Source of the DNA: Clostridia bacterium
GTDB lineage: Bacteria; Bacillota; Clostridia; TANB77; CAG-508
Length of the DNA: 64,000 nt
Reading direction: 5' to 3'
Assembly (NCBI GenBank): GCA_017458285.1
Contig: JAFTFU010000004.1
Span: 52,561-116,560, forward strand
Shown here: piece by piece, positions 10,621-64,000 of the stretch
Layout of the letters: every line of letters starts with the position of its first letter
How positions within the stretch are numbered: the first letter of the stretch is position 1
Translations under genes and position numbers: made by a program
The notes under the pieces: model-generated
Database searches by the model: none
Told to the model about the DNA's origin: nothing
Seen by the model: only the letters and a program-made list of their open reading frames with translations

Positions 10621-11106
10621 TTACTCTCCCCAATTAAAAGCAGCTTGCTTATTTGCGCAAGCACCTATACAAATGGCATCACAAATATCTTGAATAGGTT
10701 TAAGTCCATAGTTTTCATTTACCCAAGCCTATGCCGCACGTTTTTGTTCAGGTCGAGTTTTACCTTTTATACCTAAAACCGATTTCCAAGTTCCAGCTAA
10801 GATTGCTTCTACTGGAACTTTTAAATCTAAACAAAGTTCATAAAGAACTCCAAAAACTTCTGCGAGAATTTTAAATGTTTGTACATTATTTACTCGCTAT
10901 CCATCCATATAAATATCTTCTAAAAAAACTTTTTCAATTTGATTTTCTTGAATTAAAGTTTTTACTTGCAATTTTAATTCATGTAATCGTTCATAAACAT
11001 TTGTTATACTATGCAAATCAATTTTTCCATATGAATCTAATTTTCCATCTTGAAATATAGCCCAACCACTTACATTGCTTGCTTGGTCAAGTGCTAATAT
11101 TTTCAT
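10621..11106 (-). CDS. ruvC: RuvC-like Holliday junction resolvase
   Basis: MKILALDQASNVSGWAI N-terminus typical of phage RuvC. 162 codons with 2 sense TAG; TAA 10621-10623. Confidence 0.8.
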
Positions 11107-11945
11107 CTTTTTAGCTCCTTTATTTTTTCTTTAGTTAATTTATTTTTAGTATCAATTAACTCAGGACATTCTTTCCAGTGAAGAGGAATATTAGTAATGG
11201 GGTGTTTTCCTGCCGTTTTTGCTTTCCCACGAATACATCTTCTAATAGAACTTGAAGAAAAACCATATTTCTATTCTGCTTCTAAGCTTGAATTAAATGA
11301 TTCCTTTAATTCAAAACAATATATAGGAATTTTTATTCCTTTTAAAATTTCATGTTTATTTTTTAATTCATTAATTTTTTGTTGTTCTATTTGATTAGTA
11401 TAAATCCAATGAATAGGCTATCCATTGGGCATAAAACCTGCATATTTTAATTTATTTTTACAAACTTTTTGAATTGAGCTATTATCTATTCCAGTAGCTC
11501 GTTCAGCTTCTAAAGCACTTTCAAAAATTAAATCTAATTCAATACAATAAACTGATTTATTAATACTTTTTTTAAAAGTACCATCTTGCCACATCTAATA
11601 ATTTAATTTACGACGATTTTCTTTTTGATTTTTTGTTAGAGTATTTGTTAATCCTCCAGCTGTTAAATTATAACCATAATCTGGATCTTGTGTATTATAA
11701 AAAGCAATTAATTCTTGTTCTTTTAAATTAGCTTCTTCTTTAGTTAAATTAGAATAAAGAATATCGTGTGTAAAATTATCCCATCCATATTTTAAAATAG
11801 CAGAGCTAAAATGACTATTAGGCTATTTTTTTATATATTCATAACCGTTTTTACCCCATCTTTTTTTAGGAGTTTGCTTTGTCTATCCAATATATTTTTT
11901 ATTATTAATTTTATTAGTATGACAATAAATCTTGTAATTATTCAT
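11103..11945 (-). CDS. free-standing GIY-YIG homing endonuclease with repeated NUMOD/IENR-type DNA-binding modules
   Basis: NNYKIYCHTNKINNKKYIG(TAG)T. The TAG sits at the Q of the GIY-YIG motif. 281 codons. TGA overlaps the ruvC ATG (ATGA). Confidence 0.8.
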
Positions 11946-12018
11946 AAGATATTCCACCTTTCATAAAATATAAAAAATGGAATAATAATATTAAAATTTT
12001 TTGACCAATATTCCCAAA

Positions 12019-12603
12019 TTATTTGGAAGTACTGCCGAACCCCCCAGTGCGTTCAGATTTAATGGGAATATCTCCAGAAACAGTCCCATAATAAAGAAAA
12101 ATTCCTTGTCCAATTTTATCTCCCTTTTTAAGGAGAATATCTCTTGGAGATAGATTAATTAATTGAAAATAAATATGTCCTTCATTATCAGGATTATTAT
12201 AATAATCTCTATCAATAATACCTACACCATTAGCTAATACAAGCCAATGCTTTAAAGGTAAAGAGGAACGCACTTGAAGCTATAAATACATTTCACGAGG
12301 AATATAAGCTTTAATACCTGTTGGAACTAAAGTAGGTTTTACTTTTAATTTTTTAGTTTCAGCTGCAAGTTCATCTAATGTTACAGTGTGGTCAAATGGA
12401 AAATTCATTCTAATGTTTAAATAATCAAAACCGCCACTCTCAGGTTTAAAATAAGCAGGAATAATTGTGTCTTCTGCTACTATAAAATCATAACCAGCGC
12501 TATCCCAAGTTGCACGATGAGGCATTAATTCATCGTGTTCTTTATATTGAGAAATAAGCTCAAAGCGAGGAAAATCCATATTATTCTTCAATCCCTTCAC
12601 CAT
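12019..12603 (-). CDS. dut: dUTPase
   Basis: Two track ORFs join in frame through TAG 12280-12282 (..PREMYL-Q-LQVRSSLPLKHW..GVGIIDRDYYNN..ERTGGFGST). The start may instead be ATG 12579 (MDFPRF). Confidence 0.85.
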
Positions 12604-12835
12604 ACTTTACATAAAAATGACCTTCAGGAAACTTTTCTTCATTAAATACTTTCTTCGCTTTGACAATCTGATATTCTTCTACAATCTCGCCTTTTTCTTT
12701 AATGTATTTAGTAGTATAACTAAAATTTGTTAATTGAAACATAGGGTCATTAGCAAGCTCTTCATGAAGCTATTCAACTTCTTCAACAGTGCCAACGCGA
12801 TAAGTAGTTACATCGTTAATTAAATATTTATTCAT
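12581..12835 (-). CDS. hypothetical protein
   Basis: ATG 12833-12835 to TAA 12581-12583, 85 codons, one sense TAG. Confidence 0.6.
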
Positions 12836-13118
12836 TTGTTTTTCTTACCTCTAATTTAATATTTTGATTTGCATGTAATGCTTTAGATTCAGCCCAAAAA
12901 TCTTTTATTACTTTATCTAAAACCATTTCTGAGCCTGTTAATTCTACTGCTTCAGCTTGATTAGTTAAAGCACCAACTGCAAGGAACTAACCAAGAGTAT
13001 TTAAATTGCAATCTTCTGTTAATTTTCTAACTTGTTGACCTAATTCAGCTGTAGTATCAATTAAAATAATTTCTTGCTAAACTGTAAATAAGTTAGGTTT
13101 ACAAAATAATTTAACCAA
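12828..13118 (-). CDS. hypothetical protein (start uncertain, TTG proposed)
   Basis: Open frame with 2 sense TAG, ending at TAA 12828-12830. No ATG is available; TTG 13116-13118 overlaps the upstream stop. Confidence 0.35.
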
Positions 13119-15126: not shown

Positions 15127-16017
15127 CGTTTTTATCTGATGTTACCATCAGCACTGACTATATCTTCTATCTTACGATAGCCTTCCGCTTCGAGTATGTG
15201 CCTATCTCATACCCTACTCCCTTACATTCATCAGGGATAGTCGATACACTTTATTTTAGATATATTCGTTTTCTTCATATGCAATTTGCCATTCATCTTT
15301 ATAGAGCTTTTTTATTCGACCTAAACAACGACGAGAAATAAACTAATGATTACTTTCTTTAAAGAAATCTTGCATTTGTTTTTGAGTATCAAAATGATAT
15401 TCTTCTTTTGTATTTATATTTCTACATTTTACTTTTGTAGAATGTGGATTTTTATTTCCCATTTTACTTTGTCGCAATTTTTCTTTAATTATTTTCATTT
15501 CTTCATCTGTTTTATTTTTGTAAGTATTTCCGCCACATTTATACTCGGCATTAGTTTCATTATAGCCATTTTTAACACTATTATACCAAGCTATCCAATA
15601 ATGTTCTTTTGCGGTTAATTCTCGCTAAGAAGTAGCTGTATCTAATAGTTCTAATTTAAAATTATCTGGGCCATAATATCTAATTGCTCGTGCAAAATGA
15701 GTGTCTAATATATTATTTAAAGCATCATTCTTATGACGCTTCCATCGTTCTTCAATGGGACGAATACTCTATCCTATATATACCTTATTATTTTTTATAT
15801 TTGTGATTTTATAAACGAACATATTAACATTCTCCTTTTATATTATTATCGTTCATTTTATTTAAAAAATGTTCGACACAATTTAAGGAAAAATGTCCTA
15901 AAATCTTAGCACGGTCTCATCCACTTGGGACCTAACCGTTAGCATACGGACCACCTGCGGCCGCACACACCCTCGGGCGAGGTTCAAAAGGTTTTACATG
16001 AGCTGTAGTTTCCGCTT
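15127..16017 (-). mobile_element. group I intron (T4 td-like, IA2-type) in nrdD
   Basis: The 5' exon ..CAUGGGU pairs with the intron guide GCUCAUG (7 bp, U.G at the splice site). Core elements GCUAACGGU and GAUAUAGUCAGUGC are present. The intron ends ..GAUAAAAACG. An in-frame TAA lies 7 codons into the intron. Confidence 0.8.
15256..15822 (-). CDS. intron-encoded GIY-YIG homing endonuclease
   Basis: MFVYKITNIKNNKVYIG(TAG)S; 189 codons, 3 sense TAG, TAA 15256-15258. Confidence 0.8.
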
Positions 16018-19318: not shown

Positions 19319-20462
19319 CTGTAATATGTCTTTATATTTCTATAAAGCATAGACTATATTTTACTGTATACAAATACAGAACACCGTTTCCCAATGCGTA
19401 TCAATAACATCAGTACTCTCTGTCTCACCAGAGATAGTCGTTACAGGTTTCTTAAAGGATATTGATAATTGTTATTATGAAAGCACATACCATTATTAAT
19501 TCTACGAATTGTCTCTTTGGATGCTGTGGTTGCTTCTGAAATTTCTTTATATGTTAAATTAGTATTTAAAAGCAGTTCTTGGACTTGAATTGCCCTCTGT
19601 TCGTTTGCACTAATTTTTCTAATGGGGTATGAAGGATATAATCCTTTTCTTAACGTACCAGCATTAATTTTTTTAACTGTTGAATATCCCATATTTAGTT
19701 GTTTAGAAATTTCATTTAAAGATAAAGTAGAATTTAATAATAGGTCAATAAGTTCATCATAATCTTCGTCAGATTTATAATATTTACAAAGAGGATATTG
19801 TTCTTTATCATCAAAAAAATAAGTTCCTGTATTAATACTTGAAATAAAACTTGCGCTTACCCTATATTTATTTTCTATTTCATAATATGGAATTTTATCT
19901 TTTAATAGTTGTTTAATATCTTGAACCTCTTCATTAGATAATATTAAAGAATGTTTACGGGAACCACCATAATCCCTATTATATCCTTGACCGTTGCCGC
20001 AAAATGTATTTAATTCTTTTATCCAATATTGCTCTCTTTTATTAACTTCTTCCTAATTTAATGTATATAAAATTTCTAATACTTCAATATCAAAATTTTC
20101 TATACCATATTGTCTAATTTTTTTATGAATTAAATCATTATAAGAAGAAGCCTTGCTATTAAAAGCGCAAGATTTATGCTCTCTTATCCTTCTTTGTAAA
20201 TTATTTGTCTATCCAACATATTTGTGTTGATTAATTTTATTTGTATAGCAATAAATATAATTCATTTTTATTCTCCTTTATATAAACTATTGCCATACAT
20301 CCTTTAAGACTTCCCACGGGATTATCATGGCAACAGCTGGGATACATTTTATATCCTCGCTGATACTTTAGATTTCCCCGTTAGCATTTAATAACTTTTG
20401 TCCCAAAGTATTAAATACCCCGCTGATAAACGGAAAGATGTTTAGGGGCAAGTTTTCCATTC
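19319..20462 (-). mobile_element. group I intron 2 in Pol III alpha
   Basis: The exon ..AUGGGGU pairs with intron GCCCC. The T of the apparent TGA stop is the last exon nucleotide. Core elements UGCUAACGGGGAAAUCU and CCCGUGGGAA are present, and the 3' end is ..AUUACAG. Phases add up: 1228 + 1382 = 870 codons. Confidence 0.8.
19441..20265 (-). CDS. intron-encoded GIY-YIG homing endonuclease with C-terminal HTH
   Basis: MNYIYCYTNKINQHKYVG(TAG)T; 275 codons; RBS AAAGGAGAA. Confidence 0.8.
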
Positions 20463-49410: not shown

Positions 49411-49643
49411 TAGTCATCCACCTCATCTAATAACCAATCTTCATAATTGTATATTACATCAATGATTTCATTTCCTAATTTACCATTTTCAATCATATGA
49501 CGAATATACTCTAACATTGCAAATGCTCGCCAATTATACATTTTATACTAAGATGGAGTATCTTCCACTACTTTTTTCCATTCCATACCTGTGCGTTGCT
49601 CACGCAATATTTGATTATATGATTTTTGCTATTTTTTATTCAT
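49410..49643 (-). CDS. hypothetical small protein
   Basis: ATG 49643 to TAA 49410-49412 (TAATG overlap). 2 sense TAG. Confidence 0.5.
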
Positions 49644-52002: not shown

Positions 52003-53262
52003 TTATAATAAATTTGCTAATTCTGCGATTTTACTACGATGAATTTTTTGAAGAGTTACTTCACCATAAAAATCATGTCCTCTAAATATTTTAGATATTC
52101 TACGCATACCATTATTTGCGCCATCATATTCAATTAAATCTACTTGACTTTCTGTATCACCATCAAGTATCATAATACAATCTTCACCGACTCTTTGTAA
52201 AGCTAATTTAGCTAAAGTAATATCAAGATTCTAAGCTTCAGTGATATAAATACCAGCGTTCATTCCAGAAGTATCATAACCTCTAATATCACTCATAGGT
52301 AAAAGAATTAATTTATTTTCTTCAATTAAACGCAAAACCGCTTCTTGTCCACCTAATTTACTAGATAGCATATTACCAATTTGAGCATCTAATAATTTTT
52401 CGTTTTTATCTCCTGGATAGTAACCAAGTTTAGCTGCGTTACGAGTAGCTACAGTATTACAAAAAACAATTATTTTATCTATGCGATTATGTTCTAATAA
52501 ATAAAATAAATACCCAAGAGCTAGGTGAGATTTTCCTGCTCCAGAAGGACCGCGCAACATAGTAATTTGATTGTTTAATAAGCTATCTGCGGCCATTGCT
52601 TGAAAAATATCATCTTTATAAGGTTTAATATTTCCAAACCAATCACTTTCAAAAGTTTTATATTTAAGTGGTCTAAATTCAGATCCAGTCCAACATAAAG
52701 TATCTACTCTATCTCCACGACAATCCCAAATATTAACATATTCATTTATTTGAATATTTGGTAAATTTAGATGACCTTCATAAAGTAAGGCTAATTCTTC
52801 ATCTGATAAGTCTATATCTTTATAGCCTGTATAATTATCCGGTTTTATAATAATACTTTTTACTTCTATAGGTAAAAACGCTGAAGCTAGTTGCTTCATT
52901 GCCAAGTCATTAGTATAAAAAATTATTTTATCTTCAGAATTTTCAGTTAATATTCGTTTATCTAATGCATAAAGTATAGATGCAATAATTTTTCCATCAT
53001 TGTTTAATTCTAAATATGCAAAATTATTAGAAATATTATCTGTATAAATTAAACATATATATTCATTAATATGTTCATCTAAGAGATGAAGAAGTGTACG
53101 AGCTGTATGTTTTATTCTAACATCTTTATTTTGTGATACTTTAATTTTTTCTAATTCTTGCAATGTAATAGAACTAATTACTGTTATAGATTCATTACTC
53201 TATTGAAATAAATCTTCATTTAATAATAATAAGCTACTTGTATCATAAAAATTAAAAATCAT
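52003..53262 (-). CDS. phoH: PIN-domain PhoH-like ATPase
   Basis: ATG 53262 (MIFNFYDTSSLLLL, PIN-like). Walker A GPSGAGKSHLA. 2 sense TAG join the track ORF to both the upstream and downstream parts. Confidence 0.75.
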
Positions 53263-53503
53263 CTTCTTCATCATCCTCTTCTTCATTTGGAATTATAAAT
53301 CCAATTTGATTTACAGGTTCTTCACCTAATTCATTTTTTATTTTCTCTAATTGATTAGTGTCTTTCTAAATAGTTAATACCATTGGACTTTTTTTTAATT
53401 CAAGGTATTGTAATAATAAATTTATTATTCCATCGCCTAATGGCACTATCCATTGAGTAAATATAACACCTAAAATAAAAGCTATTAAAAGTTTAATAGG
53501 CAA
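53252..53503 (-). CDS. hypothetical small membrane protein with acidic tail
   Basis: TTG 53503 after AAAGGGGTGA. TM segment LLIAFILGVIFTQWIV. Ends EEEDDEEDDF. Confidence 0.45.
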
Positions 53504-53553
53504 TCACCCCTTTAAATAATCCTATATATTTATAAAAAAATATTTAAAGATAT

Positions 53554-53985
53554 TTAATCTATATTGTCCTTATTGCGGTTTGCGCGAATACGTTTATAAA
53601 ACTTATCTTTATTATTTATATATTGTTTTAATTCTTCTTGTTCATTTTTTAAAGCATCTTTCATTATATCTAATTCATTTTGTATTTGTTGACGTTGATG
53701 CTCTAGCATATTTTCCATATAGCCATGCGAATTATATTTTTTACTTTTATTTACTGAATAATATAATTGATTAAGCGCAGCTAATTTATGTTTTAATTCA
53801 TTGCGACGATATTGAAATAGTTTAATAATAGCTCTACTTGAAGCTATTTTAATACCAGTTAATTCATTTTGCATATCTTTATCTTCTGGAGCGCAATGTG
53901 CAATGCCTGTGAAATACTAGCCTTCATATTCAATAATATATGTAGATACTCCAGAGTCGTTATCATATAAATAATTATGTTCCAT
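53554..53985 (-). CDS. hypothetical coiled-coil protein
   Basis: ATG 53985. One sense TAG joins it to the track ORF 53554..53874. Confidence 0.6.
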
Positions 53986-54051
53986 AATAAAAATTCCTTT
54001 TTCTTTTAATTATACTAAAAGAAAAAGGAAAAGGCAAGTTTAAATTAAAAT

Positions 54052-54080
54052 TTGACACTAGAAAAAATTTTTTTTATAAT
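54052..54080 (+). promoter_or_regulatory. consensus sigma70/sigmaA-type promoter TTGACA-17 nt-TATAAT
   Basis: TTGACA 54052-54057 and TATAAT 75-80 of the same kb (54075-54080), exact 17-nt spacer, 85 nt upstream of ATG 54166. Confidence 0.7.
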
Positions 54081-54165
54081 TAATATGTAAATTTTTTAGA
54101 GGTATATTTATGTGTAATATTCTTTAATGGGATAAAGAATAAAAATTAATAAAGGAAGTAAATAA

Positions 54166-55374
54166 ATGATATTTCATGATTGTACACAATGTACGAATGA
54201 ATGTCGGTTGCAAGCATTTGAAGCTGTCAGAGATGAATATTCATCTATTGACAGCTTCAAGTATAATCCGCAAATTCATTCTAAACCAAAAAGTATTTTA
54301 TTAGGATTAACTAATAAGTGTAATTTAAATTGTAACTATTGTTTTGTACATTAGAATCCTTTAGATATGACTTTTGATGTAGCAGATAAAGGAATTTAGT
54401 GGGTATTATCTAATTGTCAAGAAGATGAAAAGCCAACTGTTGGATTTTTTGGAGGAGAGCCTTTATTAAAATTTAATGATATAATTGTTCCTATTGTATA
54501 GAAATATAAAAATAAAGTTAATTTCTCTATTACTACTAATGGGATTCTATTAAATGAAGATATTATTGATTTTCTTCATGATTATGAAATTTATCCTTTA
54601 TTATCTTTTGATGGAGTTCCAGAAGTATAGAATAAACAACGCTCTAATTCATTTAATCAAGTATTGAAAAATATTCCTTATCTTTTATTACGTTTTCCTG
54701 AAATAACTATGCGGGCTACAGTTACAAAAGAATCTATTCCTTATTTATATGATACTGTATTAATGGCAGATGAATTAGGATTTAAACATATTTTCTTTTG
54801 TGAAAATGCTTATGAAGATTGGGATAAAGAGATTGAAAAAGAGTTAGAAGAATAGTTTAAAAAAATAGGCTTATTTATTTATAAAAGATTAAGAAATAAA
54901 GAATCTGTTTTAAAAATTGATCCTTTTAATCGTATTTTTGAAAGTATTGATAAAGGATAGCATAATGAATTATATTTTGATAATAGAATAATACGATGTG
55001 GGTTAGGAACTACTTCCTGCGCAATTACTCCAGAAGGAAATATAATTCCTTGTCAAGAAAAAATTTCTAATATAACGCATATAATTGGAAATATTTATAC
55101 AGGCATTGATTATAAAAAACATAAAGAATTTTTAATAGATTACTTTAATAAAGTAAATAATTTATCTTGTGATAAAGGGTGTTCGGATAAAAATAAATTA
55201 ATTTGTTTATCTCATTTATGCCCTTCTCGTTTAGAAGATTTAAATTATTAGTTTTCTACAGCTTCGTGCGCTTTTTCTCGTATGGCAACAAAAATTTGTT
55301 TAAGGCTATTCTTTTTATGTAGTTATAGCATAGAACCTAATATTAGAGAATATTGGGGAGGTGGATTAAATTGA
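54166..55374 (+). CDS. radical SAM enzyme with C-terminal SPASM-type Cys clusters (anSME / sactisynthase-like), enzyme A
   Basis: LGLTNKCNLNCNYCF (CxxxCxxC); GGEPLL; RCGLGTTSCAITPEGNIIPC; CDKGC..CLSHLC. 403 codons. 8 sense TAG, all checked in frame. TGA at 55372-55374. Confidence 0.8.
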
Positions 55375-56546
55375 ATCCGCGTTTACGACCTACAAAAGTA
55401 AGAAGTATTATTTTTACTGAAGCTTGTCCTTTAGATTGTTTATATTGTAATTTTAAGCAAAGTAATAATTTTGGTACTAGTAAAGGTTTAACAAAAGAGC
55501 AATTATTTCATTTAGTAGAAACTTTTGATAAATTAGATGATGTAAATACTATAGATACAAGGATATTATTTTCGGGCGGCGAACCCTTGTTGCGTTGGCC
55601 ATGGATAAAAGAAATTATAGAAAAATATTAGACAAGATTTTCTTATTCTTTTAATACTTCTGGATATTTATTTACAGAAGAAATGTTGGAATTTTTATCT
55701 CATTATTAGGTAGATTTTACTTTATCTATAGATGGTAATGAAGCGCTAACTAATTATCTGCGACCAGTAGTAAACAACCCTTATAAAGTAGGATATATGA
55801 AAGCTTTGAAAAAGATAGTTCCCACTTTTTTATATTATTTTCCTACTACTCCATTTAGATTAATTGTTAATGCAAGATATGTTGATTTATTATATCAAAT
55901 ATATCAATTTGCTAATGAATTAGGCTTCCCATATTTTACTTTTTTAATAGATTTTGGTCATAGAGATTTTGATAAACCTAATGAAAAACCTAAAAAAAAT
56001 TATTTAAAGTGGGAAGAAAAACATACTGAAATTTTAGAAGAGCAATTAATGTTAATTGTTAATAACATTTTAAGTTCTTATAAGCAAGGAATTAAAAGAA
56101 CACAAGTTTTAGAATTTAATTAGATTCTTAAATATTTATTTAATGAAATTAAATTTACTCCAGAAAATATTCATTGTTAGTTATTTAATAAAAGAAGTTT
56201 AACTACTTTATATAATAATGATTTAGAAGGATATTGTCTTAAACGAGAATTTCCTGATATTGAAAAATTAAAAATTGCTGTAATGGATGAATATAATTCT
56301 TTAAATCATACTTGTTATTTAGATGAAAAATGTCCTATGTTTGATTATTGTTGTATTCATTGTTGTATTCAAAGTGGTTATTATAAATCAAAACGATTTT
56401 TTGATTTTGATACTATTGAATGTTTAGTAATGAAAAGTTGTTATAAAGCTATTTTAAAATTATTATCTGTTGGAAATGATGAATGTAAAGATGTTTTTTT
56501 ATATCAATAGTACATACTTGATATGATAGAACAAGGGGGTGCTTAA
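55371..56546 (+). CDS. second radical SAM enzyme with C-terminal Cys cluster, enzyme B
   Basis: TTG start after GGAGGTGGA, overlapping the upstream stop (TTGA). FTEACPLDCLYCNF; SGGEPLL; C-terminal CYLDEKCPMFDYCCIHCC. 5 sense TAG; TAA 56544-56546. Confidence 0.75.
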
Positions 56547-56547
56547 A

Positions 56548-57192
56548 ATGTCTATTCCTAATTCACCTTCTTGCGATAGTTGTTATAATGGAGAAAGTTG
56601 TTCAGATAGAAATAGCGGCGGATGTTCTGGGTGTAATGTTTGTGATTATAGCTGTTAGACAATTTGTGAAGTTGGTTATTAGTCAATAAAAAATCATCCA
56701 AATGTTGGAGATTTTCCTTGGAAAGAAGTTAAACCAAAGATAGATTTTATAAAAGATGTTATTACAGCAGTTAATTGGAATTCTTTAATAAAAAAGCTAG
56801 AAGAAGCTGAAAAAGTAGGAGAAAAATCTTCTCAAGGTAGTAAAGGTTCTGCAACTTAGGTATAGCCTAATGGAGTTTTTTATGCTAATAATTATAATGA
56901 AATTTAGCAAAAATTAAGTGGTTTTGAAGATGCTGCTTTTGATCCTGTAGTAAAAAATGATTTAATTACAGCTGCACGAATTAATGCTATTAGAAATGCT
57001 TATTTAAATGCTAAATTTAAAAACAGTGTATGCGATGTATGTAATAGTGGAGAAAACTCTTGTAGTTGTAATTGCGCTTGTTCTTGTGATTGTGCGTGTG
57101 ATTGCCCTTGCCCGTGTTCTTGTGATTGTAGCTGTGACTGTAACTGTAGTTGTAATTGTAGCTGTGGGCCTTCCTGTGGAGATAATTCCTAA
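56548..57192 (+). CDS. 214-aa Cys-rich protein (N-terminal Cys cluster, helical middle, C-terminal alternating Cys-X tail); candidate radical SAM substrate
   Basis: ATG follows 1 nt after the enzyme B stop; RBS GGGGGTG. MSIPNSPSCDSCYNGESCSDRNSGGCSGCNVCDYSC(TAG)TIC ... CDVCNSGENSCSCNCACSCDCACDCPCPCSCDCSCDCNCSCNCSCGPSCGDNS. 5 sense TAG; TAA 57190-57192. Confidence 0.75.
57061..57165 (+). repeat. (TGY-NNN)n hexanucleotide-periodic tract encoding 18 Cys alternating with S/N/A/D/P
   Basis: 35 consecutive codons: C S C N C A C S C D C A C D C P C P C S C D C S C D C N C S C N C S C. Confidence 0.9.
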
Positions 57193-57194
57193 TT

Positions 57195-57287
57195 AAAATT
57201 TTGAAAAGCGATTTTGGTTTTGGATTGCGGATGTACTGACCCTGGCCGGCCGCAGCAGATATTTTTTTCGCATGCATGTGTGTGAGC
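57195..57287 (+). repeat. GC-rich structured element, copy B
   Basis: AAAATTTTGAAAAGCGATTTT..ATTGCGGATGT..CTGGCCGGCCGCAGCAG..TTCGCATGCATGTGTGTGAGC. Collinear with copy A at 26247-26344. Its 3' end merges into the operon terminator. Confidence 0.6.
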
Positions 57288-57316
57288 CCCTTATATACGT
57301 TATGTATATAGGGGGC
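57286..57316 (+). terminator. rho-independent terminator of the radical SAM cassette
   Basis: 12-bp stem gccccttatata / tatatagggggc with a 7-nt loop, followed by TTTAATTT. Confidence 0.75.
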
Positions 57317-57321
57317 TTTAA

Positions 57322-57373
57322 TTTGACTCTTTTTTTTTTTTTGTTACTATAAAAGAAAAAAGGAGTTGAAAAT
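57322..57373 (+). promoter_or_regulatory. conserved promoter/5'-leader cassette (copy 2) TTTGACTC-T13-GTTACTATAAAAGAAAAAAGGAGTTGAAAAT-ATG
   Basis: Nearly identical to the reverse complement of 6972-7030. Confidence 0.45.
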
Positions 57374-57811
57374 ATGGCGACAGCATTTTTAGGTTTACCA
57401 ACTGTTACAACTGGTACTTTAATTAAAGCATCTGATTGGAATAGTATGGTAAATAAAATAGATGCGGCTATAAAGAAAATTATGGTTGTTGAACATTTAC
57501 ATGAATTTGGAATTATAGAAATGAATAATACTTCTGAGAGTAAGACAATATCTTTACCATCGGCGACCGTAAAAGGATATTTTAAACTTGCAACTGCTCA
57601 CCCTCCAGATAGCAATGCTGTGATAGATATTCCTTTAAGGCAAGCAATTTCTAGTGTATCAATACCTACTACGAAGACTTTAGGTTGTACAGCAGCAATA
57701 ACATATCCATCAACTACTTCTTGTACTATATCAGCATCTCGAAACGGCGGCACAGGAAGTTATACTAGCTTGTATTATTGGGTATATATATATGAAGTCA
57801 TGTCAGTATAA
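57374..57811 (+). CDS. hypothetical small protein (N-terminal LIKASDWNSMVNKI motif shared with the Cys-rich protein and 6426..6971)
   Basis: Intact 145-aa ORF with no TAG. A bidirectional terminator lies downstream. Confidence 0.75.
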   Translation: MATAFLGLPTVTTGTLIKASDWNSMVNKIDAAIKKIMVVEHLHEFGIIEMNNTSESKTISLPSATVKGYFKLATAHPPDSNAVIDIPLRQAISSVSIPTTKTLGCTAAITYPSTTSCTISASRNGGTGSYTSLYYWVYIYEVMSV

Positions 57812-57906
57812 TATTTATATTTTTAAAGAAATTCTAAAAAATAAAATTGAGTAATATTTATTAAAATTACGATAGTTATAATAAATCTTTATATATGTAT
57901 ACATGT

Positions 57907-57941: not shown

Positions 57942-58712
57942 TTAACCATAATAGCCTCCATCGGGAGGGTCTCTGCGATATTGCCAATCTCTAGGACAAG
58001 TAACATTCATCCAACTGGGTCCGGAGCATTTTCCTTCATGAACACAACGAGCGCACTGCCTTCTTTTATATTCATCAACTTTTAACCAAGTTTCATAAGG
58101 CTTAATTTTAGTAACATCAGGTTCAACGCAAATATCATGTGGAGTAGTTCCTTCTTTAATCAAATGCGTATCTGTCCATTTAGTTTTCATCTCTTGGATA
58201 ATATCATTTAAATTACAAGGATAACAATCGTGAGCATCCATTGCAGTATTATACATCCAAAGATTATTCTCAAAGAAATGTTCTTTTTGATGAGTATGTC
58301 CAAAAAGATTAAGAGTCATTTGTTTTAAAAACTTATCATTATTCCCAGTGAGAGAAGGAAAATGACTCATATAAAAATGGTATCCCTGATGCTTTAGATA
58401 AATAGAATTTTTTGTTTCTACTACATTAGGAAGTTTAGAAAAAGCTTCCCATCTTTTATCTGTACAATGATTACCTCTAACTAAATGTAATTTTCCATTT
58501 ATTCTACTAATTAGATTTAAACCTTGTTCTAAACTTTTTTCTCCCCCTAAAAGAAGATCTCCTAATACATACAAATCATCTTCTGGTTTAACCAATTTAT
58601 TATTTCTTTTAATAATTTCTTCGTTCATTTCATTAACAGAAGAGAAATTTCGTGCTTTCCAAATAAATTCTCTATTGTGGCAAAAATGCCAATCACTTGT
58701 TATAAAAATCAT
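57942..58712 (-). CDS. calcineurin-like metallophosphoesterase with Cys-rich C-terminus
   Basis: SDWHFCHN, LGDLLLGG, GNHC and GHTH motifs. No TAG. Confidence 0.75.
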   Translation of the reverse strand: MIFITSDWHFCHNREFIWKARNFSSVNEMNEEIIKRNNKLVKPEDDLYVLGDLLLGGEKSLEQGLNLISRINGKLHLVRGNHCTDKRWEAFSKLPNVVETKNSIYLKHQGYHFYMSHFPSLTGNNDKFLKQMTLNLFGHTHQKEHFFENNLWMYNTAMDAHDCYPCNLNDIIQEMKTKWTDTHLIKEGTTPHDICVEPDVTKIKPYETWLKVDEYKRRQCARCVHEGKCSGPSWMNVTCPRDWQYRRDPPDGGYYG

Positions 58713-59367
58713 AAAACATCAATCCTTCATCTAAAGTGTCTGTTTTTGGAATTTCTTTCCAATGATAACCATAAGCTTTTTCAGTTATGCCATTTAGACA
58801 ACGTCTTATATTAGGATGTGCTGTCTTTTTTAAATATATATCTACATCAGCCATTGATTTGAAAACTAAATTTTTCTCTACTAATACAATATAACTTTTA
58901 ACAGGCTTTATTCCTAATGCTCGTTTAGATAATTCTTTATAGTTAATATTTTTAGAATTTAATGCTGTATATACTACCTAATCATAGATTTGAAAATATT
59001 GACAAGTTTTAGTTATTGAACAGCCATTTAATAAATAATAATTTACAATTTCATCGTAATTATATTTTGTATGACCTAAACCACCCAGGGCCGCATTATA
59101 TCCATTTTTAAAACTATTATAATGATTTATCCAAAATATTTCTCTTTCATTTAATTTTGAATTTTCACATTCCTCAATTTTTTCAATTATAAAATTCTAT
59201 TCACCATATTTATTAATCGCTAAATGTAAGGGAGCATTATGATCTTTATCCTACTCATTTTTTGCACTTTTACAATGGTCTAACCATCTGCGATGAATGG
59301 AATTTCTTGTCTATCCAATATATAATTTTTGATTTAATTTATTTGTAATTTTGTAAATAGAACCCAT
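58693..59367 (-). CDS. free-standing GIY-YIG homing endonuclease
   Basis: MGSIYKITNKLNQKLYIG(TAG)T .. AYGYHWKE. 225 codons. The end overlaps the phosphoesterase start. Confidence 0.8.
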
Positions 59368-59434
59368 ATTATAACACCTTCCTTTATAATACTTAAAAAA
59401 TATCACGATACGGTGTCATAAAACTGTCCAAAAC

Positions 59435-60737: not shown

Positions 60738-60740
60738 TAT

Positions 60741-61124
60741 TTAATCCATTAATCTACAGAAAGGTACATAAAGAGAAGCTGAAAAACCAAGATTTTTCTC
60801 ATAATAAGCTCGACATTTTTCTTTTATGCAGGGTACAAATTCTTCTTCAGTCCACTCAGCATTTTTCATTTCAGTAACTACTTTTGGATTTAATTCGCTT
60901 TGATAATAATAAGCTGAAGTGATTTTACGAAATGGACAAAGTTTTACAGATCGTTTTTGAAAAGAAGATTTTTCAACTTTAGGATAATAATGTTCTAAGG
61001 CTTGTTCTACTCTAAATACTGGAATTAATTTTGAACCATTAGTATAACACTATTCTTTATCAATTATAGAATAATTTTCAAGAAAATCTTCTATTTTATT
61101 AGGGAAAGTCATAGAATCACTCAT
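60741..61124 (-). CDS. hypothetical protein
   Basis: ATG 61124 to TAA 60741-60743, 128 codons, one sense TAG. Confidence 0.6.
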
Positions 61125-61981
61125 TATTTTCTACCTCCTAAATAAGTTTTAGTAAATAATTTTCATTTAACTTATCATAATCAGTATAAGGAATTCTAAT
61201 TAAAGAAATATTTTTTATTTTACAATAATTATTTTTATATGTATCATATTCTTGAATATGTTTTAAACTTTTTTCTTTTTGCCCCCATCCAGAAAAATGC
61301 TGAGGTCCATCATACTCTATTAAGCATATTAACTAATCATTGTGGAAAATAGCATAATCGAAGTAGGCGAGTCGATTAGTTTGCGGGAAACGACAATCAT
61401 TAAAATAATATTGTGTTTTGAAGGATATGTTTAATTTAGTTAATAAGGTATTTATTTTTAACTCACCTTTAGATTTTAAACATCCACAAGACTAAGTATT
61501 ACCATTTGTTAAATTATAAGTTTGAATTTCTACAATGTTACCGCAATCACATTTACATTTTTTAGCATTTTTATTAAAAAGATTTTCTATGACAGTTAAT
61601 TTTCCGAAACGCTGCCCTACTAAATCTTTTTGTTCAAAGAACTATTCTTTAATGTGGCCGCAAGAAGTGGTATGATTAGAAGTTAAATAATCTGTTCTTA
61701 CTTCAATTTCTTTCCCACAAGAACATTTGCAAATCCATCGTGTATATTTATCATTACGTGCGGCTGCAGGTTTAATAGCAATCAATTCTCCAAATGACTA
61801 ATTAGTTAAATCTAGTTTTTTTTGTATTTGGCGCAATGCCCCATTCTTTTAAATTTTTCATAAGCGTTGGGCCAGAACAACCATATTCTTTACCTAATTT
61901 TTTTGATCCAATTTTTTTAATTGTATATTTATAAATTATATCTTGTTTTTCCTATTCAGTAAACGTTTTCTAAACAGACAT
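61117..61981 (-). CDS. free-standing homing endonuclease (HTH plus zinc-ribbon repeats plus PD-(D/E)xK-like), with a frame change at an A8 run
   Basis: MSV..GSKKLGKEYGCSGPTLMKNLKEWGIAPNTKK ends at TAA 61802-61804. The +1 frame after the A8 run (61816-61823) continues LDLTN(TAG)SFGELIAI..CKCSCG..TSCGH..CKCDCGN..SCGC..YFDYAIF..LIEYDGPQHF to TGA 61117-61119. Confidence 0.65.
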
Positions 61982-62013
61982 ATTTTACACATCCCTTCTA
62001 TTAAATATAAAAA

Positions 62014-62048
62014 TTTGAGGGCATCGCTAAAATAGTTTTGCCCTCAAA
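62014..62048 (-). terminator. rho-independent terminator after the RNA ligase gene
   Basis: tttgagggca / tgccctcaaa stem, followed by a T-run on the minus strand. Confidence 0.65.
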
Positions 62049-62053
62049 AAGTT

Positions 62054-63469
62054 TTACATTTCAGAAAGGATATCTTCGTCCATGCTTTCAATATCTTTTT
62101 CTGCCAAAGAATCTATGGCAACTCCGCTTAAACACTTGAAGTTAAAATTCTTATGTTTATAAGCGCAAAACTTAGGCTTATCAACAATTCTTACAACTAC
62201 GCCTTCTCTAATATGAGTTTTACCAATGGGGTCAGGACCATCATAAAATTCTTCGGCTTTCGCTTTAATCCAATCTCCAGCGGTACGATAATTATCTACA
62301 TTTACAGAAAAATCAGTGCGGTCATAATCAGAAGGAATAATACCTCTCCAAAGGATAGGAACAGATTCTACTCCCATCTGCTCACACCGATACCGCATAT
62401 AATCAGGTGGATACTCAACAACGTGACCATCTTCAGTAGTTTTAGTCATACGATATACAAAAAGACGAGACTGCGGCAGTTCTACTTCAAGAGCAAAATC
62501 ACCTTCATCATCCCTACCATAAAGTATTTTCTTACCATCGGGAGCACAACCATAAGAAAAAGTGGTAGTAGATCCGTACTGCTTAGAAAAAGCTTTATCA
62601 CTTACCTTACTATTGGATACCTGCGGCATAATAGGAGTTCCATTATTAGTAAATCCGCAAACTTCATAATAAACAGTTTCACCCTGGAATAGTTTACCTT
62701 GAAAAGCAAGCGCGTGCGGCTCACGGAAACTATTATCACCATAGTATCCGCCCTTTTCAAAATCATTAAGAACGGTTCTACGAGTACCAGTTACATAACC
62801 ATATTCATAGATAGGAGAACCCTCTCGCCGCAGAATGCGGTCCAGCAAAGTACGCTTATAGCCGGAAAGCTTGGGTAAATAACCAGTTCTTTGAGAAGTA
62901 CCATGTACCTTAAGAGTAATTTCAATTAAATCTCCTTGCTTAAAATCTCCAAGATGATAAGTAAGCTGTTCAGTATCAACATGCTGAGCAAAAAGAGGAG
63001 CAATATCTACAGTGGTCTTACGACCTTTATTACCCTGCGTTCCAGAATGTCTATTAGAACCTCTAGGAATATACTTACAACAAATATCATGACCGTTAAT
63101 TACATCAATATGATCGCCAATTTCAAATTTAGCTTCACCGGTATAAGCAAGAGATTCCAGAGGCATAAACAAACCTTCAGAACGCTCACCGCGTAACTTC
63201 ATTGCGCGAATATTACGCTTGTTAGGGTCAAGATAACCTCCAATATTATTACCATTTTCATCCTTTTTGCGCACGAGATTATTATAATCACAATACTCCT
63301 GGCTTAACTGAAGGTCAGTTGGGAAGAAAATACCAAAATCACCAAGCTGAACATCAAGTCCAACAATTACATTTTGTCCAAAAATAACCGCACACTGAAG
63401 TCTATCCGCATTAGAATGAGGATGAAGTTCATTAATTTTTACTACGTAACCACAATGCTCTGCGCTCAT
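62054..63469 (-). CDS. ATP-dependent RNA ligase (DRB0094/Rnl-like) with N-terminal OB / tRNA-binding-like domain
   Basis: N-terminus VVKINELHPHSNADRLQCAVIFG. Nucleotidyltransferase motif I ITLKVHGTS. Intact 471 aa, no TAG. Confidence 0.65.
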   Translation of the reverse strand: MSAEHCGYVVKINELHPHSNADRLQCAVIFGQNVIVGLDVQLGDFGIFFPTDLQLSQEYCDYNNLVRKKDENGNNIGGYLDPNKRNIRAMKLRGERSEGLFMPLESLAYTGEAKFEIGDHIDVINGHDICCKYIPRGSNRHSGTQGNKGRKTTVDIAPLFAQHVDTEQLTYHLGDFKQGDLIEITLKVHGTSQRTGYLPKLSGYKRTLLDRILRREGSPIYEYGYVTGTRRTVLNDFEKGGYYGDNSFREPHALAFQGKLFQGETVYYEVCGFTNNGTPIMPQVSNSKVSDKAFSKQYGSTTTFSYGCAPDGKKILYGRDDEGDFALEVELPQSRLFVYRMTKTTEDGHVVEYPPDYMRYRCEQMGVESVPILWRGIIPSDYDRTDFSVNVDNYRTAGDWIKAKAEEFYDGPDPIGKTHIREGVVVRIVDKPKFCAYKHKNFNFKCLSGVAIDSLAEKDIESMDEDILSEM

Positions 63470-63476
63470 AAATATA

Positions 63477-64000
63477 TCACTCCTTTATTAAATACTAATC
63501 TCCCATTATCATGTCTAAAGTTATGTTATTTAATTCCCAATATGGAATACGTACTAATGGAATATTATGCGTTAAAGCATATTTATTTTTTTGTTTATCA
63601 TAAATTTGTCTTTGCTAAAAAGATTGTTTAAAAATAGGAATATCTTTAAAATGCTATTCTCCATCAAATTCAATTAATCTTATTGGTTCATTGTTTTTGA
63701 ATAAAATAAAATCATATCGTAATTCTCTGCCATTATTTCCCATTAAATCTTTAAAATATGCTTTATTATATAAATATGAAATATTGTGTTCTTGTAGAAT
63801 AACTTCTATCTAAGATTCGCCGGCACTTTTATTTTTACATCCACAGGAAACAGTATTTCCTAATACTAAATCATGACTACTCACTAATTTAATATTTCCA
63901 CAAGCACACTAACATTTCCAAAGTGGACGATTATCATTATTTTTTATATTTGTTGCTTCTATAACTTTTAATTTTCCAAATGTTTGATTTAATAAATTTT
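63477..64000 (-). CDS. homing endonuclease of the zinc-ribbon plus PD-(D/E)xK-like family (5' end outside window)
   Basis: ..LLNQTFGKLKVI..C(TAG)CACGN..VSCGC..LRYDFILF..LIEFDGE(TAG)HF. TGA 63477-63479. Confidence 0.7.

Follow-up and report, generated by a model that had tools for sequence, protein, structure and literature searches.

Two questions are raised by the window, a stretch of 64,000 nucleotides of DNA: whether the many homing endonuclease genes (HEGs) in its replication genes are recent arrivals or old residents, and how they fare in a genome whose stop codons have been reassigned. The contig to which it belongs (120.8 kb) is a phage with TAG recoded to Gln, and positions 10.6-64 kb of the window are its early/replication module. 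ORFs of at least 100 aa cover 0.50 of the contig under the standard code vs. 0.94 with TAG as sense, and the remaining MAG contigs are standard-coded. Key to the analysis was the closest relative, G001, a single, 81%-complete IMG/VR record with 91-96% nucleotide identity across the module; TAG exchanges mostly with CAA or CAG between the two. G001 is empty for all 14 HEGs and all six introns, and its empty alleles set each insertion site to the exact base. With G001 as the empty reference, HEG presence was compared site by site in further relatives, labelled with L numbers, in a clade that also includes TGA-recoded and standard-code members. No suppressor tRNA was found on the phage contig, so that the means and timing of TAG decoding are matters of inference.

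Introns and free-standing cassettes of the module

The module carries nine GIY-YIG genes, one HNH gene and four genes for zinc-ribbon nucleases with a Vsr-like PD-(D/E)xK domain (ZnPD). Six HEGs reside in group I introns (nrdD, dnaE twice, a thyX-like gene, gyrB twice) and eight are free-standing, one of them dividing ligA. The initial annotation had claimed 14 HEGs and six introns in about 53 kb, and Pfam and PHROG matches together with absence from G001 bear this out; the space taken, given there as 11.7 kb or 18%, is recomputed as ~12.3 kb of inserted blocks within the window, or 19%. All nine GIY-YIG genes, with starts as first annotated, match Pfam PF01541 or SegE_GIY-YIG/NUMOD. GIY1 scores 22.5 against a cut-off of 22.6 and GIY4 17.3, and HEGs scoring at or below Pfam cut-offs could be inactive. 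The HNH gene (25351-25848), likewise correctly recognized with its start at 25848, matches PHROG HNH families (E=3.5e-21) and gave no match in a Pfam search. The four zinc-ribbon nucleases hold up through matches to DUF2726 and to PHROG families annotated 'homing endonuclease' or 'intron encoded nuclease', except that one start had been misplaced at 61981, the nuclease ORF starting at 61836. A conserved coiled-coil GIY-YIG gene (36740-37777), additional to the earlier count, occurs in all relatives and is a core gene, not a mobile HEG.

The introns, all group I, are:

15127-16017, minus strand: nrdD intron between MG and CRT, holding GIY2 (15256-15822)
19319-20462, minus strand: dnaE intron 2 between PQMG and YSF, holding GIY3 (19441-20265)
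21691-22707, minus strand: dnaE intron 1 between RVELG and DIDID (catalytic aspartates), holding GIY4 (21782-22468)
35075-36084, minus strand: thyX-like intron between PLYW and WKE, holding ZnPD1 (35210-35902)
44807-45790, minus strand: gyrB intron 2 between DADVDG and AHI (Toprim DxD), holding GIY6 (44935-45624)
46037-47120, minus strand: gyrB intron 1 between ITEG and DSA (Toprim Glu), holding GIY7 (46173-46904)

All six, base-exact against G001, leave stop-free ORFs upon removal (NrdD, 754 aa; DnaE, 1328 aa; ThyX-like, 286 aa; GyrB, 647 aa), and 6/6 follow the group I rule, with U as the last base of the 5' exon and G as that of the intron, as in the nrdD junction ATGGGT/aagcgg...aaaaacg/TGCAGA. 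Each intron has one copy of the P element GCTAACGG and one of a Q-like element, neither of which recurs elsewhere on the 120-kb contig (six occurrences apiece), and a complementary R/S pair (GACTAT/ATAGTC) is present. RNAalifold, applied to four ORF-deleted introns, recovered P4 and P7 with compensatory changes in 17 of 53 pairs. Searches with the Rfam group I model missed all six, also when relaxed to E<=10 on a 2.5-kb sub-region; L075 has a dnaE intron that lacks an ORF, shares the P4-P6 sequence and scores 63.7 bits against Rfam Intron_gpI. The six are related introns whose endonuclease ORFs all occupy a peripheral loop, located between P4-P6 and P7. They interrupt nrdD, dnaE, the thyX-like gene and gyrB at the most highly conserved catalytic codons, and splicing out of the mRNA would be needed to restore the interrupted enzymes.

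Occupancy of these sites varies among relatives. GIY2 homologues lie at the same nrdD site in L044, L045, L050, L063 and L071, a 58% homologue of GIY3 occupies the identical dnaE site in L061, and GIY4 has homologues in L046 (77%) and L048 (58%). The thyX-like intron, whose ZnPD1 is of the zinc-ribbon plus PD-(D/E)xK kind, is an exact 1010-nt insertion relative to G001 and was not found in the ~5 relatives with both thyX exons mappable. The gyrB intron 2 site is filled by other GIY-YIG genes in L003, L012, L014 and L019.

The free-standing HEGs, described earlier as lying beside or inside conserved genes, were indeed placed at ruvC/dut, helicase, ligA, gyrB, kinase/phosphoesterase and RNA ligase:

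11103-11957, minus strand: GIY1, GIY-YIG HEG between ruvC and dut (block 11110-12028; Pfam GIY-YIG/NUMOD)
25351-25848, minus strand: HNH HEG, exactly between orf25922 and the helicase start (block 25341-25930)
38133-38888, minus strand: ZnPD2, zinc-ribbon plus PD-(D/E)xK (block 38142-38985; PHROG homing endonuclease)
40089-40691, minus strand: GIY5, GIY-YIG HEG dividing ligA (690-nt block, no intron)
48391-49164, minus strand: GIY8, GIY-YIG HEG upstream of gyrB (block 48388-49230)
58693-59367, minus strand: GIY9, GIY-YIG HEG between kinase and phosphoesterase (block 58695-59434)
61117-61981, minus strand: ZnPD3 (61117-61836) and an upstream 57-aa HTH-like ORF (block 61140-62135)
63477-64000, minus strand: ZnPD4, zinc-ribbon plus PD-(D/E)xK, upstream of the RNA ligase gene (block 63470-64257)

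GIY8 has rewritten the gyrB N-terminus, GIY9 has replaced that of the phosphoesterase, and the RNA ligase gene has had its final 27 codons replaced by the ZnPD3 block; ZnPD3 and the HTH-like ORF (to 61981) lie downstream of that gene, in different frames. The eight cassettes come with ribosome-binding sites of their own and rewrite start or stop regions of their neighbours. GIY5 is not intron-borne because its block is too small for a ribozyme. The ligA gene, continuous in G001, is here an adenylation/OB ORF (40753-41883) and a Zn-HhH-BRCT ORF (39272-40096), a layout shared with L002, L005 and L031 (GIY5 identity 68-70%); the flank in the C-terminal half has only 81% nucleotide identity to G001. 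GIY1 and ZnPD2 (26.8 bits against DUF2726, cut-off 24.7) are likewise absent from G001. In L067/L068 the GIY1 site holds a 62% homologue, and a zinc-ribbon nuclease takes the place of GIY8 in L009 and L034. ZnPD genes stand in the position of ZnPD3 in L244, L272 and L287 and, as with ZnPD4, which extends to ~64190 past the window end, directly upstream of RNA ligase in L226, L239, L276, L277, L283 and L286.

Direction of change and TAG content

It is very probable that the replication module of this recoded phage was invaded recently, and many times, by homing elements. Identical endonuclease content at every site in relatives would have spoken against recent mobility; instead the closest relative has none of the 14, and distant relatives carry homologous HEGs at identical sites only patchily. 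The direction, gain here vs. loss in G001, is suggested by parsimony and flank divergence in an unrooted comparison: identity to G001 is 0.86 in the first 25 nt beside the junctions vs. a background of 0.92, a small dip that differs from site to site. Alternatively, the HEG-rich state is ancestral and persistent, and G001 shed all 14, either through exact deletions or by recombining with empty alleles. Homologues of 55-77% at the same sites in distant relatives imply that several pairings of site and HEG are old, and G001 is one incomplete record. Nevertheless, 14 precise losses, including six exact intron excisions, within ~5% divergence are unparsimonious, most sites are empty in most relatives, and the divergent tracts beside the inserts resemble imported donor sequence. 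In addition, the HEG at the GIY7 site of L007 is 95% identical although its GyrB is only 82% identical, making recent horizontal transfer visible. Wholesale loss is accordingly improbable. Invasion would have proceeded by cleavage of the empty allele of a related phage during co-infection, with repair copying the element plus some flanking sequence.

The HEGs had also been ranked among the most TAG-rich genes. Their enrichment is real and moderate: HEGs have 1.76 vs. 0.70 TAG per 100 codons in neighbouring genes (Mann-Whitney p=7e-5), a second tally gives 1.72 vs. 0.65 in other replication genes, and among Gln codons TAG makes up 0.38 vs. a module background of 0.18. The HEG level is, however, that of late genes (2.08 per 100 codons; share 0.48), and the most TAG-rich single gene is the coiled-coil GIY-YIG gene (4.6 per 100 codons). 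The long residence in recoded genomes deduced earlier is supported by codon use that matches the resident code: HEG homologues have 78 TAG and 0 TGA in 4682 codons in TAG-coded relatives, 7 TGA and 0 TAG in 1093 codons in TGA-coded relatives, and hardly any of either in standard-looking loci.

Residence time need not be the whole explanation of the enrichment, which may stem from selection for late expression. Because HEGs contain TAG at the late-gene rate while the genes they inhabit are almost free of it, they would probably be translated only after a phage-imposed switch of the cell to decoding TAG as Gln, delaying cutting until after replication-gene expression; if so, an HEG would be useless in a relative with a different code. 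A regulatory meaning is dispensed with if codon selection is weak and C->T drift (CAG/CAA->TAG) has accumulated harmless TAG in dispensable AT-rich genes. Such drift also predicts the near-absence of TAG and TGA in standard-looking loci, and TAG-rich non-HEGs do exist in the module (RecJ, 2.5; primase, 1.6 per 100 codons; the coiled-coil gene). Drift seems a rather unlikely sole cause, given that none of the 14 HEGs has fewer than two TAG while 28 of 53 neighbouring genes, including exons around HEGs, have none, that the HEG share of Gln codons is near the late value and twice the background, and that the same bias is significant for an intron endonuclease family of TGA-recoded phages (bioRxiv 10.1101/2021.08.26.457843).

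The interrupted helicase

The HNH gene adjoins a helicase gene (24141-25352) bearing one further insert:

25254-25261 (approximate), minus strand: 8-nt insert TAACGGCA in the Walker A codons of the helicase

The insert lies at codon 31, in the context GGC TAC GCT/TAACGGCA/GGA ACT GGA AAA. Stop-led inserts of 5-8 nt occur in 12 of 92 distinct helicase alleles (the window and 11 relatives); they are TAA-led in 10 further relatives and TAG-led, three codons downstream, in L063. Each opens with a true stop codon directly after the same Ala (or Gly) codon. HNH gene and insert are linked, in that all four loci with the gene (its homologues are confined to L150, L063 and L072, G001 lacking it) have an insert. 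The insert has been gained repeatedly in different backbones and is kept in genomes without the endonuclease; in one, a Vsr-like endonuclease replaces HNH.

These observations make the insert a candidate for a ribosome hop like that of T4 gene 60. There is about an even chance that the HNH cassette carries a stop-codon mini-insert into its probable target, the Walker A codons, whereby it would protect its own genome and the ribosome would have to skip the insert. Somewhat short of even is the chance of a plain knockout, in which the HNH enzyme or misrepair broke a dispensable helicase and homing spread the allele without recoding. Depending on the insert, the frame is shifted by 0, +1 or +2, and take-off and landing codons match in only 7 of 12, the other five landing on Val or Thr codons, as a knockout would allow; the downstream ORF of the window is 99% identical to G001, so that the event is recent and decay might not yet be visible. 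Against this, a downstream ORF of ~370 codons is intact in 12/12 interrupted alleles, and the 92 distinct helicases contain one other stop only, a single in-frame TAA in L052. Downstream sequence is under strong purifying selection in insert-bearing sister pairs (L166/L168, dS 0.59, dN/dS 0.09; L067/L068, dN/dS 0.03), the P-loop codons right after the insert vary synonymously with GTGKST/GSGKST kept, and, as noted, each insert opens with a true stop right behind one and the same Ala (or Gly) codon. A conserved hairpin, an internal SD and a nascent-peptide signal were looked for at the helicase insert and not found.

Comparison with known systems

The T4 mobA/gene 60 translational bypass cassette, reportedly described by Bonocora in 2011, offers the closest parallel to a helicase hop. 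In both, an HNH gene directly precedes the gene that is interrupted, the insert falls some tens of codons into the gene where conservation is high, and a stop directly follows the take-off codon, with take-off and landing matching in most copies here; the insert outlives endonuclease loss and is gained repeatedly in different backbones. Unlike gene 60, the gap is 5-8 nt rather than 50 nt, the target is an SF1 helicase P-loop rather than a topoisomerase, the three accessory signals were not found, and five of 12 copies have non-matching landing codons; the hop itself is a prediction. The gene 60 cassette has been called 'unique' (Manning & Atkins, bioRxiv 10.1101/2022.08.31.505936).

The kinds of element are already known, and their load is comparable to that of T4, which has group I introns in td, nrdD and nrdB with I-TevI-III and 12 free-standing seg (GIY-YIG) and mob (HNH) genes (PMC2988022). 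HEG numbers are alike (15 in T4, 14 here), as are shares ('11% of coding potential' vs. ~10% of the contig) (PMC2988022). Both phages mix intron-encoded and free-standing HEGs, all oriented as their neighbours, both have nucleotide-metabolism and replication targets including nrdD, and in both cassettes give neighbours new starts. In contrast to T4, the 14 HEGs lie within 53.6 kb rather than 169 kb, there are six introns rather than three and a third nuclease family, and the phage is TAG-recoded and unrelated to T4. Late expression, which in T4 depends on late promoters and RBS hairpins, would here stem from in-frame TAG.

The third family recalls I-Bth0305I and the EDxHD and 'VSR-like' phage homing endonucleases, which have a PD-(D/E)xK (Vsr-type) catalytic domain (PMC3239194) and similarly occur in phage group I introns and free-standing beside nucleotide-metabolism genes. 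Its motif, D...ExDGxQH...D..K with one to three N-terminal CxC...SCGC zinc-ribbon repeats, is unlike I-Bth0305I, and a family profile found no relative in the PDB, I-Bth0305I included. Replacement of MobE by a VSR-like enzyme is mentioned in the literature.

Delay of an HEG by stop codons is an idea already published, for one intron endonuclease of the TGA-recoded 'Agate' phages: the group I intron endonuclease, in an early gene, prefers the reassigned stop codon, and its synthesis is proposed to be blocked until late infection (Borges et al., bioRxiv 10.1101/2021.08.26.457843). The 'Agate' clade, with genomes of ~130-180 kb, has TAG-recoded, TGA-recoded and standard-code members, as does the present clade. 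Whereas that report concerned one gene family under TGA recoding, all 14 HEGs, of three families, are involved here under TAG recoding, and, beyond it, one and the same HEG lineage uses TAG or TGA depending on the resident code.

A TAG-recoded replication module rich in endonuclease genes

Contig C101, the source of the window, is 120,761 bp long and was binned in a MAG of 2.36 Mb and 28% G+C. Its coverage by ORFs of at least 100 aa rises from 0.50 under the standard code to 0.94 with TAG as sense, and coverage of the other large contigs in the bin is unchanged by this reading; it was therefore concluded that a TAG-recoded phage contig had been binned with a standard-code bacterium. In-frame TAG occurs throughout the C101 genes and most likely specifies glutamine, because comparison of the window with its closest relative shows TAG interchanging mainly with CAA and CAG (11 of 15 changes in one direction, 13 of 24 in the other). 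The incomplete contig carries no tRNA gene, suppressor tRNAs included. Its start is overlapped, at 94% identity, by the end of contig C78.

From 10.6 to 64 kb the minus strand of the window holds a replication and nucleotide-metabolism module comprising ruvC, dut, nrdG/nrdD, dNMP kinase, dnaE, SF1 helicase, RecJ, primase, DnaB, Sak4-like ATPase, thyX-like, ligA, gyrA/gyrB, RNase H, lysin, PhoH-like, phosphoesterase, kinase and RNA ligase genes. Homologous modules in loci of related phages (L001-L077) include 33 TAG-coded, 11 TGA-coded and 33 standard-looking members, a mixed-code make-up similar to that of the published Agate clade.

The module is interspersed with 14 homing-endonuclease genes (HEGs). 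The nine GIY-YIG genes (GIY1-GIY9) proposed in the initial annotation lie where it placed them, and each is recognized by PF01541, by SegE_GIY-YIG and NUMOD modules, or by both. Seven of the nine exceed the Pfam cut-off for PF01541; GIY1 is borderline (22.5 versus 22.6), and GIY4 falls under the cut-off, yet matches NUMOD3 (34 bits) and SegE_GIY-YIG. The single putative HNH gene (25351-25848) has no match in Pfam or NCBIfam; it is strongly matched by PHROG HNH families (phrog_2255, E=3.5e-21), and its protein sequence displays the motif DFHH...N...CANCHREIH. A tenth GIY-YIG domain is C-terminal in a coiled-coil protein (36740-37777). Being conserved across all relatives, this is a core gene and not mobile; with 16 TAG in 345 codons it is the most TAG-rich gene in the window. 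In two related loci, L019 and L036, the coiled-coil gene is itself interrupted, and the L019 insert carries a GIY-YIG gene.

The remaining four genes, ZnPD1-ZnPD4, encode one to three N-terminal repeats of the form FGxL...WxCxCxCG...V...L..G...SCGC, followed by a domain with D...ExDGxQH...D..K. They match PHROG families named 'homing endonuclease' or 'intron encoded nuclease' (E 1e-15 to 1e-42), and at least 7,566 related protein clusters exist, nearly all unnamed. ZnPD2 clears the DUF2726 cut-off; ZnPD1 and ZnPD3 score under it. Residues D177, E187, Q192, H193, D211 and K214 are invariant, and D189 nearly so. In an AF2 model (pLDDT 89) an alpha-beta-beta-beta-alpha-beta core (H139-150, E155-160, E175-180, E184-189, H204-220, E225-229) bears the conserved acidic residues. 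Sequence and profile searches of the PDB gave no meaningful match and no nuclease; kinship with the EDxHD family (I-Bth0305I) was not found by profile search of PDB sequences, Foldseek with the full-length model returned nothing below E=0.2, and NCBIfam had no match to the zinc-ribbon proteins. By profile, predicted core fold and residues, ZnPD1-ZnPD4 are classed as putative PD-(D/E)xK nucleases of the Vsr/DUF2726-like kind. All four zinc-ribbon nuclease genes that had been annotated stand. The start at 61981 does not: it belongs to a 57-aa helix-turn-helix (HTH)-like ORF (61810-61981) that lies upstream of ZnPD3 in a different frame, ZnPD3 itself starting at 61836; where the two overlap there is an A8 run. 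Possibly the HTH-like ORF was the N-terminal DNA-binding domain of ZnPD3, now frameshifted, and is either decaying or joined to it by slippage.

In keeping with the recent mobility that had been envisaged, endonuclease content differs among the many relatives drawn from IMG/VR. All 14 HEGs are absent from the closest, G001 (record IMGVR_UViG_3300021400_000219, 139.6 kb), which is 91-96% identical in nucleotide sequence to the window from 7 to 64 kb, and other relatives are occupied patchily. A tblastn search of G001 with the HEGs matched only the core coiled-coil gene and none of the 14. The alignment is broken exactly at 15 blocks, comprising the 14 HEG/intron blocks and one non-HEG block:

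57284-57902: 619 nt, absent from G001, with a plus-strand 145-aa ORF and no family match.

This block, read as an inserted gene, adjoins the terminator hairpin of a plus-strand cassette (54166-57192) that encodes a pair of radical SAM/SPASM enzymes together with a Cys-rich protein ending in an alternating Cys-X tail, and that is about 82% identical to its counterpart in G001. The segments peculiar to G001 encode glycosyltransferases and hypothetical proteins and hold no HEGs. HEG and intron blocks together take up about 12.3 kb of the window (19%), close to the 11.7 kb first estimated.

Group I introns and free-standing cassettes

Six of the HEGs are intron-borne. Measured against the intron-less alleles of G001, in which the genes are continuous, all six introns are exact insertions, and their removal leaves stop-free NrdD (754 aa), DnaE (1328 aa), ThyX-like (286 aa) and GyrB (647 aa) reading frames. 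All six junctions obey one rule, with U as the last base of the 5' exon (G.U in P1) and G (omega-G) as the last base of the intron.

Introns, all on the minus strand, with the endonuclease gene carried and exon/intron/exon junctions
nrdD intron (GIY2): ATGGGT/aagcgg...aaaaacg/TGCAGA
dnaE intron 2 (GIY3): ATGGGGT/gaatgg...attacag/ATAGTT
dnaE intron 1 (GIY4): CTCGGT/agtcta...aataacg/GATATT
thyX-like intron (ZnPD1): TACTGGT/aggtta...aacatg/GGAAAG
gyrB intron 2 (GIY6): GATGGT/atgtaa...aaatg/GCTCAC
gyrB intron 1 (GIY7): GAGGGT/aagtga...acatg/GACAGT

Insertion falls in catalytic motifs: MG/CRT of NrdD, ELG/DIDID of DnaE, and EG/DSA and DADVDG/AHI of the GyrB Toprim domain. Each intron has about 170-240 nt on the 5' side of its ORF and 90-136 nt on the 3' side, with an SD ahead of every ORF. 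The P motif GCTAACGG and a Q-like partner each occur in exactly six copies on the 120-kb contig, one per intron; the R element CGACTATC is present in five of the six, and S elements of the (A)GATATAGTC type, to which R is complementary, can be seen in the 3' portion of every intron. Folding four of the introns with RNAalifold after deletion of their ORFs returned P4 (ACGGGG/CCCGU), P7 (GACUA/UAGUC) and several hairpins, with compensatory changes in 17 of 53 pairs. Scans with Rfam RF00028 gave no group I match, either over the window in full, at the gathering score or at E<=10, or with the gyrB introns alone. An ORF-less dnaE intron in a related locus (L075, 3443-3675) is recognized by Rfam (63.7 bits, E=1.2e-13), and its P4-P6 sequence is visibly homologous to that of the window introns. 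Because this homologue is detected, the Rfam miss is probably due to the 0.6-0.8-kb loop ORF, which breaks the match. On the strength of the core motifs, the covariation and the L075 match, the six were accepted as predicted group I introns with an ORF in the loop between the P4-P6 domain and P7, and they would be expected to splice.

The gyrB introns are independently confirmed by redundant contigs in the bin, C108 (7.5 kb) and C110 (5.2 kb), which duplicate window 42162-49617 and 52286-57521 at 99.97-99.98% identity. The notion that these contigs represent HEG-minus phage variants within the same MAG was rejected, since their HEG content is the same. NotI palindromes (GCGGCCGC) occur seven times on the 120-kb, 30% G+C contig, and four of them lie inside four of the six introns (15957, 22569, 44850 and 47058) in the form of (C)CTGCGGCCGCAGG hairpins, possibly a peripheral stem that these introns share or else a small mobile palindrome.

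The other eight HEGs are free-standing cassettes between genes, where they remodel their neighbours.

Remodelling by free-standing cassettes
GIY8: gyrB gains a new start from the cassette
GIY9: replaces the first ~12 phosphoesterase codons
ZnPD3 block: replaces the last 27 RNA ligase codons
HNH block: the helicase gains an RBS and a TTG start, both new
GIY5: ligA is divided into two ORFs, the break falling between OB fold and zinc finger

An intron or intein in ligA was considered and rejected in view of the stop and frame change and of the size of the GIY5 block, which leaves no room for a ribozyme because its 690 nt hold a 603-nt ORF. The ligA split is kept in three diverged relatives, in which the HEG is 68-70% identical.

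Site occupancy and probable adaptation to the resident code

Relatives are occupied at only some of the sites, and the resident HEG is often of a different lineage or family.

Occupancy of the sites in related loci
nrdD site: 5 loci
dnaE intron 1: 2 loci
dnaE intron 2: 1 locus
gyrB intron 1: 1 locus
gyrB intron 2 site: 4 loci, with other GIY-YIG genes
ligA split: 3 loci
ruvC/dut site: 2 loci
RNA ligase flanks (80 loci): ZnPD gene upstream in 6, downstream in 3-4

Relatives have introns at further sites, in gyrA, RecJ, the coiled-coil GIY-YIG gene and other nrdD and dnaE positions. GIY7 is 95% identical to its homologue in locus L007, whose GyrB is 82% identical. Identity to G001 in the 25 nt flanking the junctions is 0.86, as against a comparison value of 0.92, and at several free-standing genes the drop is far deeper on one side. 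The C-terminal ligA ORF (38986-40089) is 81% identical in nucleotide sequence (68% aa) to G001, versus 92-96% for neighbouring genes, and looks like a long co-conversion tract brought in with GIY5. Co-conversion from diverged donors would give such dips in flank identity; the signal is uneven across sites. The occupancy and flank patterns are together read as multiple recent gains in the window lineage, and loss of the elements from G001 instead is the less likely account of its empty alleles. The HEGs would be predicted to cleave those alleles and to function in homing.

The enrichment in TAG ascribed earlier to the endonuclease genes was borne out. HEGs have 1.72-1.76 TAG per 100 codons and at least two TAG each, compared with 0.65-0.70 in the rest of the module (Mann-Whitney p=7e-5), where 28 of 53 genes are TAG-free; the value for the structural/late half of the contig is 2.08. 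The exons around the intron HEGs have no TAG in dnaE or gyrB, three in nrdD and four in exon 1 of the thyX-like gene. Across relatives the in-frame stops of HEG homologues match the resident code: 78 TAG and no TGA in TAG-coded loci (4682 codons), no TAG and seven TGA in TGA-coded loci (1093 codons), and four TAG and five TGA in standard-looking loci (4543 codons). The nrdD-intron HEG, with three TAG in the window, has a 69%-identical homologue with three TGA. These data support the view that HEGs have long resided in recoded genomes and have apparently adapted to the resident code. It follows that a HEG entering a differently coded relative would be truncated, and recoding may split the mobile-element gene pool among TAG-coded, TGA-coded and standard-code relatives. 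Since all three HEG families follow the resident code, stop-codon recoding may also time selfish-gene expression. Such code matching agrees with what Borges et al. proposed, namely that an intron endonuclease is delayed until late infection by recoded stops (bioRxiv 10.1101/2021.08.26.457843).

A stop-led helicase insert and comparison with T4

In G001 the P-loop stretch of the SF1 helicase, ...VIAGFAGTGKST, is uninterrupted. The window helicase (24141-25352), which follows the HNH gene directly on its downstream side, is broken in the Walker A codons: 31 codons past its new start it reads GGC TAC GCT TAA CG GCA GGA ACT GGA AAA, with eight extra nt (TAACGGCA) at about 25254-25261 that close the frame. 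From the HNH block to the insert, identity to G001 is 64-84%; past the insert it is 99%. Interruptions occur in 12 of 92 distinct helicase alleles from the clade, in 11 of them at one codon, after GGC TAY GCY.

Inserts in interrupted helicase alleles
Common codon, longer inserts: TAACGGCA, TAAAAGTT, TAAAGCA, TAAGGCA, TAAAGCT, TAAAACT
Common codon, shorter inserts: TAAGCA, TAAGCT, TAAGTT (twice), TAACT
L063, a TGA-coded genome, three codons downstream: GGT TAGGT AAA

Inserts are 5-8 nt long and change the frame by 0, +1 or +2. In all 12 a true stop codon lies immediately 3' of the take-off codon, TAA in 11 and TAG in L063, and in seven of the 12 the landing codon is synonymous with the take-off codon (GCT to GCA or GCT, GGT to GGT), the others being GTT (three) and ACT (two). 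Elsewhere in the 92 alleles the sole stop seen is one in-frame TAA, in L052. Interrupted alleles are dispersed on the helicase tree, so placed as to require at least 7-9 changes. Only four loci have the HNH gene, all four interrupted, and it accompanies none of the 80 uninterrupted alleles (Fisher/hypergeometric p about 2e-4). Upstream of the other interrupted alleles there is one zinc-ribbon nuclease, and seven are without any. When the collection was scanned for the exact context of the 8-nt insert, all matches were in-frame P-loops unrelated to it.

A ribosomal hop, a frameshift or a knockout could each be the consequence of the insert. The downstream ORF of about 370 codons is intact in all 12 alleles and is under purifying selection in two sister pairs in which both members have the insert (L166/L168, dS 0.59 and dN/dS 0.09; L067/L068, dN/dS 0.03). 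Internal re-initiation was rejected, there being no start codon between insert and P-loop, and minimum-free-energy folds around the inserts show no hairpin common to all copies. Since in-frame, +1 and +2 inserts all keep the selected downstream frame, the mechanism would be frame-independent, which would point to a short programmed hop more than to classical frameshifting; programmed recoding of some form is put at nearly an even chance. In the scheme proposed, the insert would render the phage's own helicase gene immune to the HNH endonuclease, and ribosomes would hop (or shift) from the Ala codon across TAA to the codon preceding GTGKST, restoring the helicase.

All the element types are of known kinds, and the link between recoding and HEGs has already been published for one family. 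What is new is the density of elements and the difference of 14 HEGs to none between near-identical genomes; the match to the resident code in three HEG families and the helicase insert; and an unnamed zinc-ribbon/Vsr-like family that appears to serve as an intron-encoded HEG. The two phages are a natural example, at base resolution, of the speed of homing-element turnover: their replication modules are about 95% identical and differ by 14 HEGs and six introns, and the 14 matched full and empty sites are suited to cleavage and competition experiments. Intron endonucleases have been suggested, in recent work, as weapons among co-infecting phages (PMC11620839). HEG and intron loads are probably under-counted in metagenomic phage annotation, because none of the six introns is detected by Rfam and thousands of relatives of the zinc-ribbon/Vsr-like family lack a name.

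T4 has 15 HEGs and three introns in 169 kb, described as 11% of its coding potential and as unmatched among T4 relatives (PMC2988022); here 14 HEGs and six introns lie within 53.6 kb and make up about 10% of 120.8 kb. In the T4 mobA/gene 60 system the insert protects from the endonuclease and outlasts its loss, and at times a VSR or GIY-YIG gene accompanies the gene 60 insert instead (bioRxiv 10.1101/2022.08.31.505936). The helicase locus resembles that system in its stop-led insert, in the linkage to an HNH gene and in retention of the insert without an endonuclease or with a different nuclease. It differs in that gene 60 has a gap of about 50 nt, a take-off hairpin, an internal SD and a nascent-peptide signal, whereas the helicase inserts are 5-8 nt long without a conserved hairpin. 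The HNH cassette and stop-led insert could be a second natural counterpart of mobA/gene 60, operating by a ribosome hop or shift, a possibility judged to fall a little short of even; if the hop is real, T4 gene 60 would no longer be the sole endonuclease-linked bypass.
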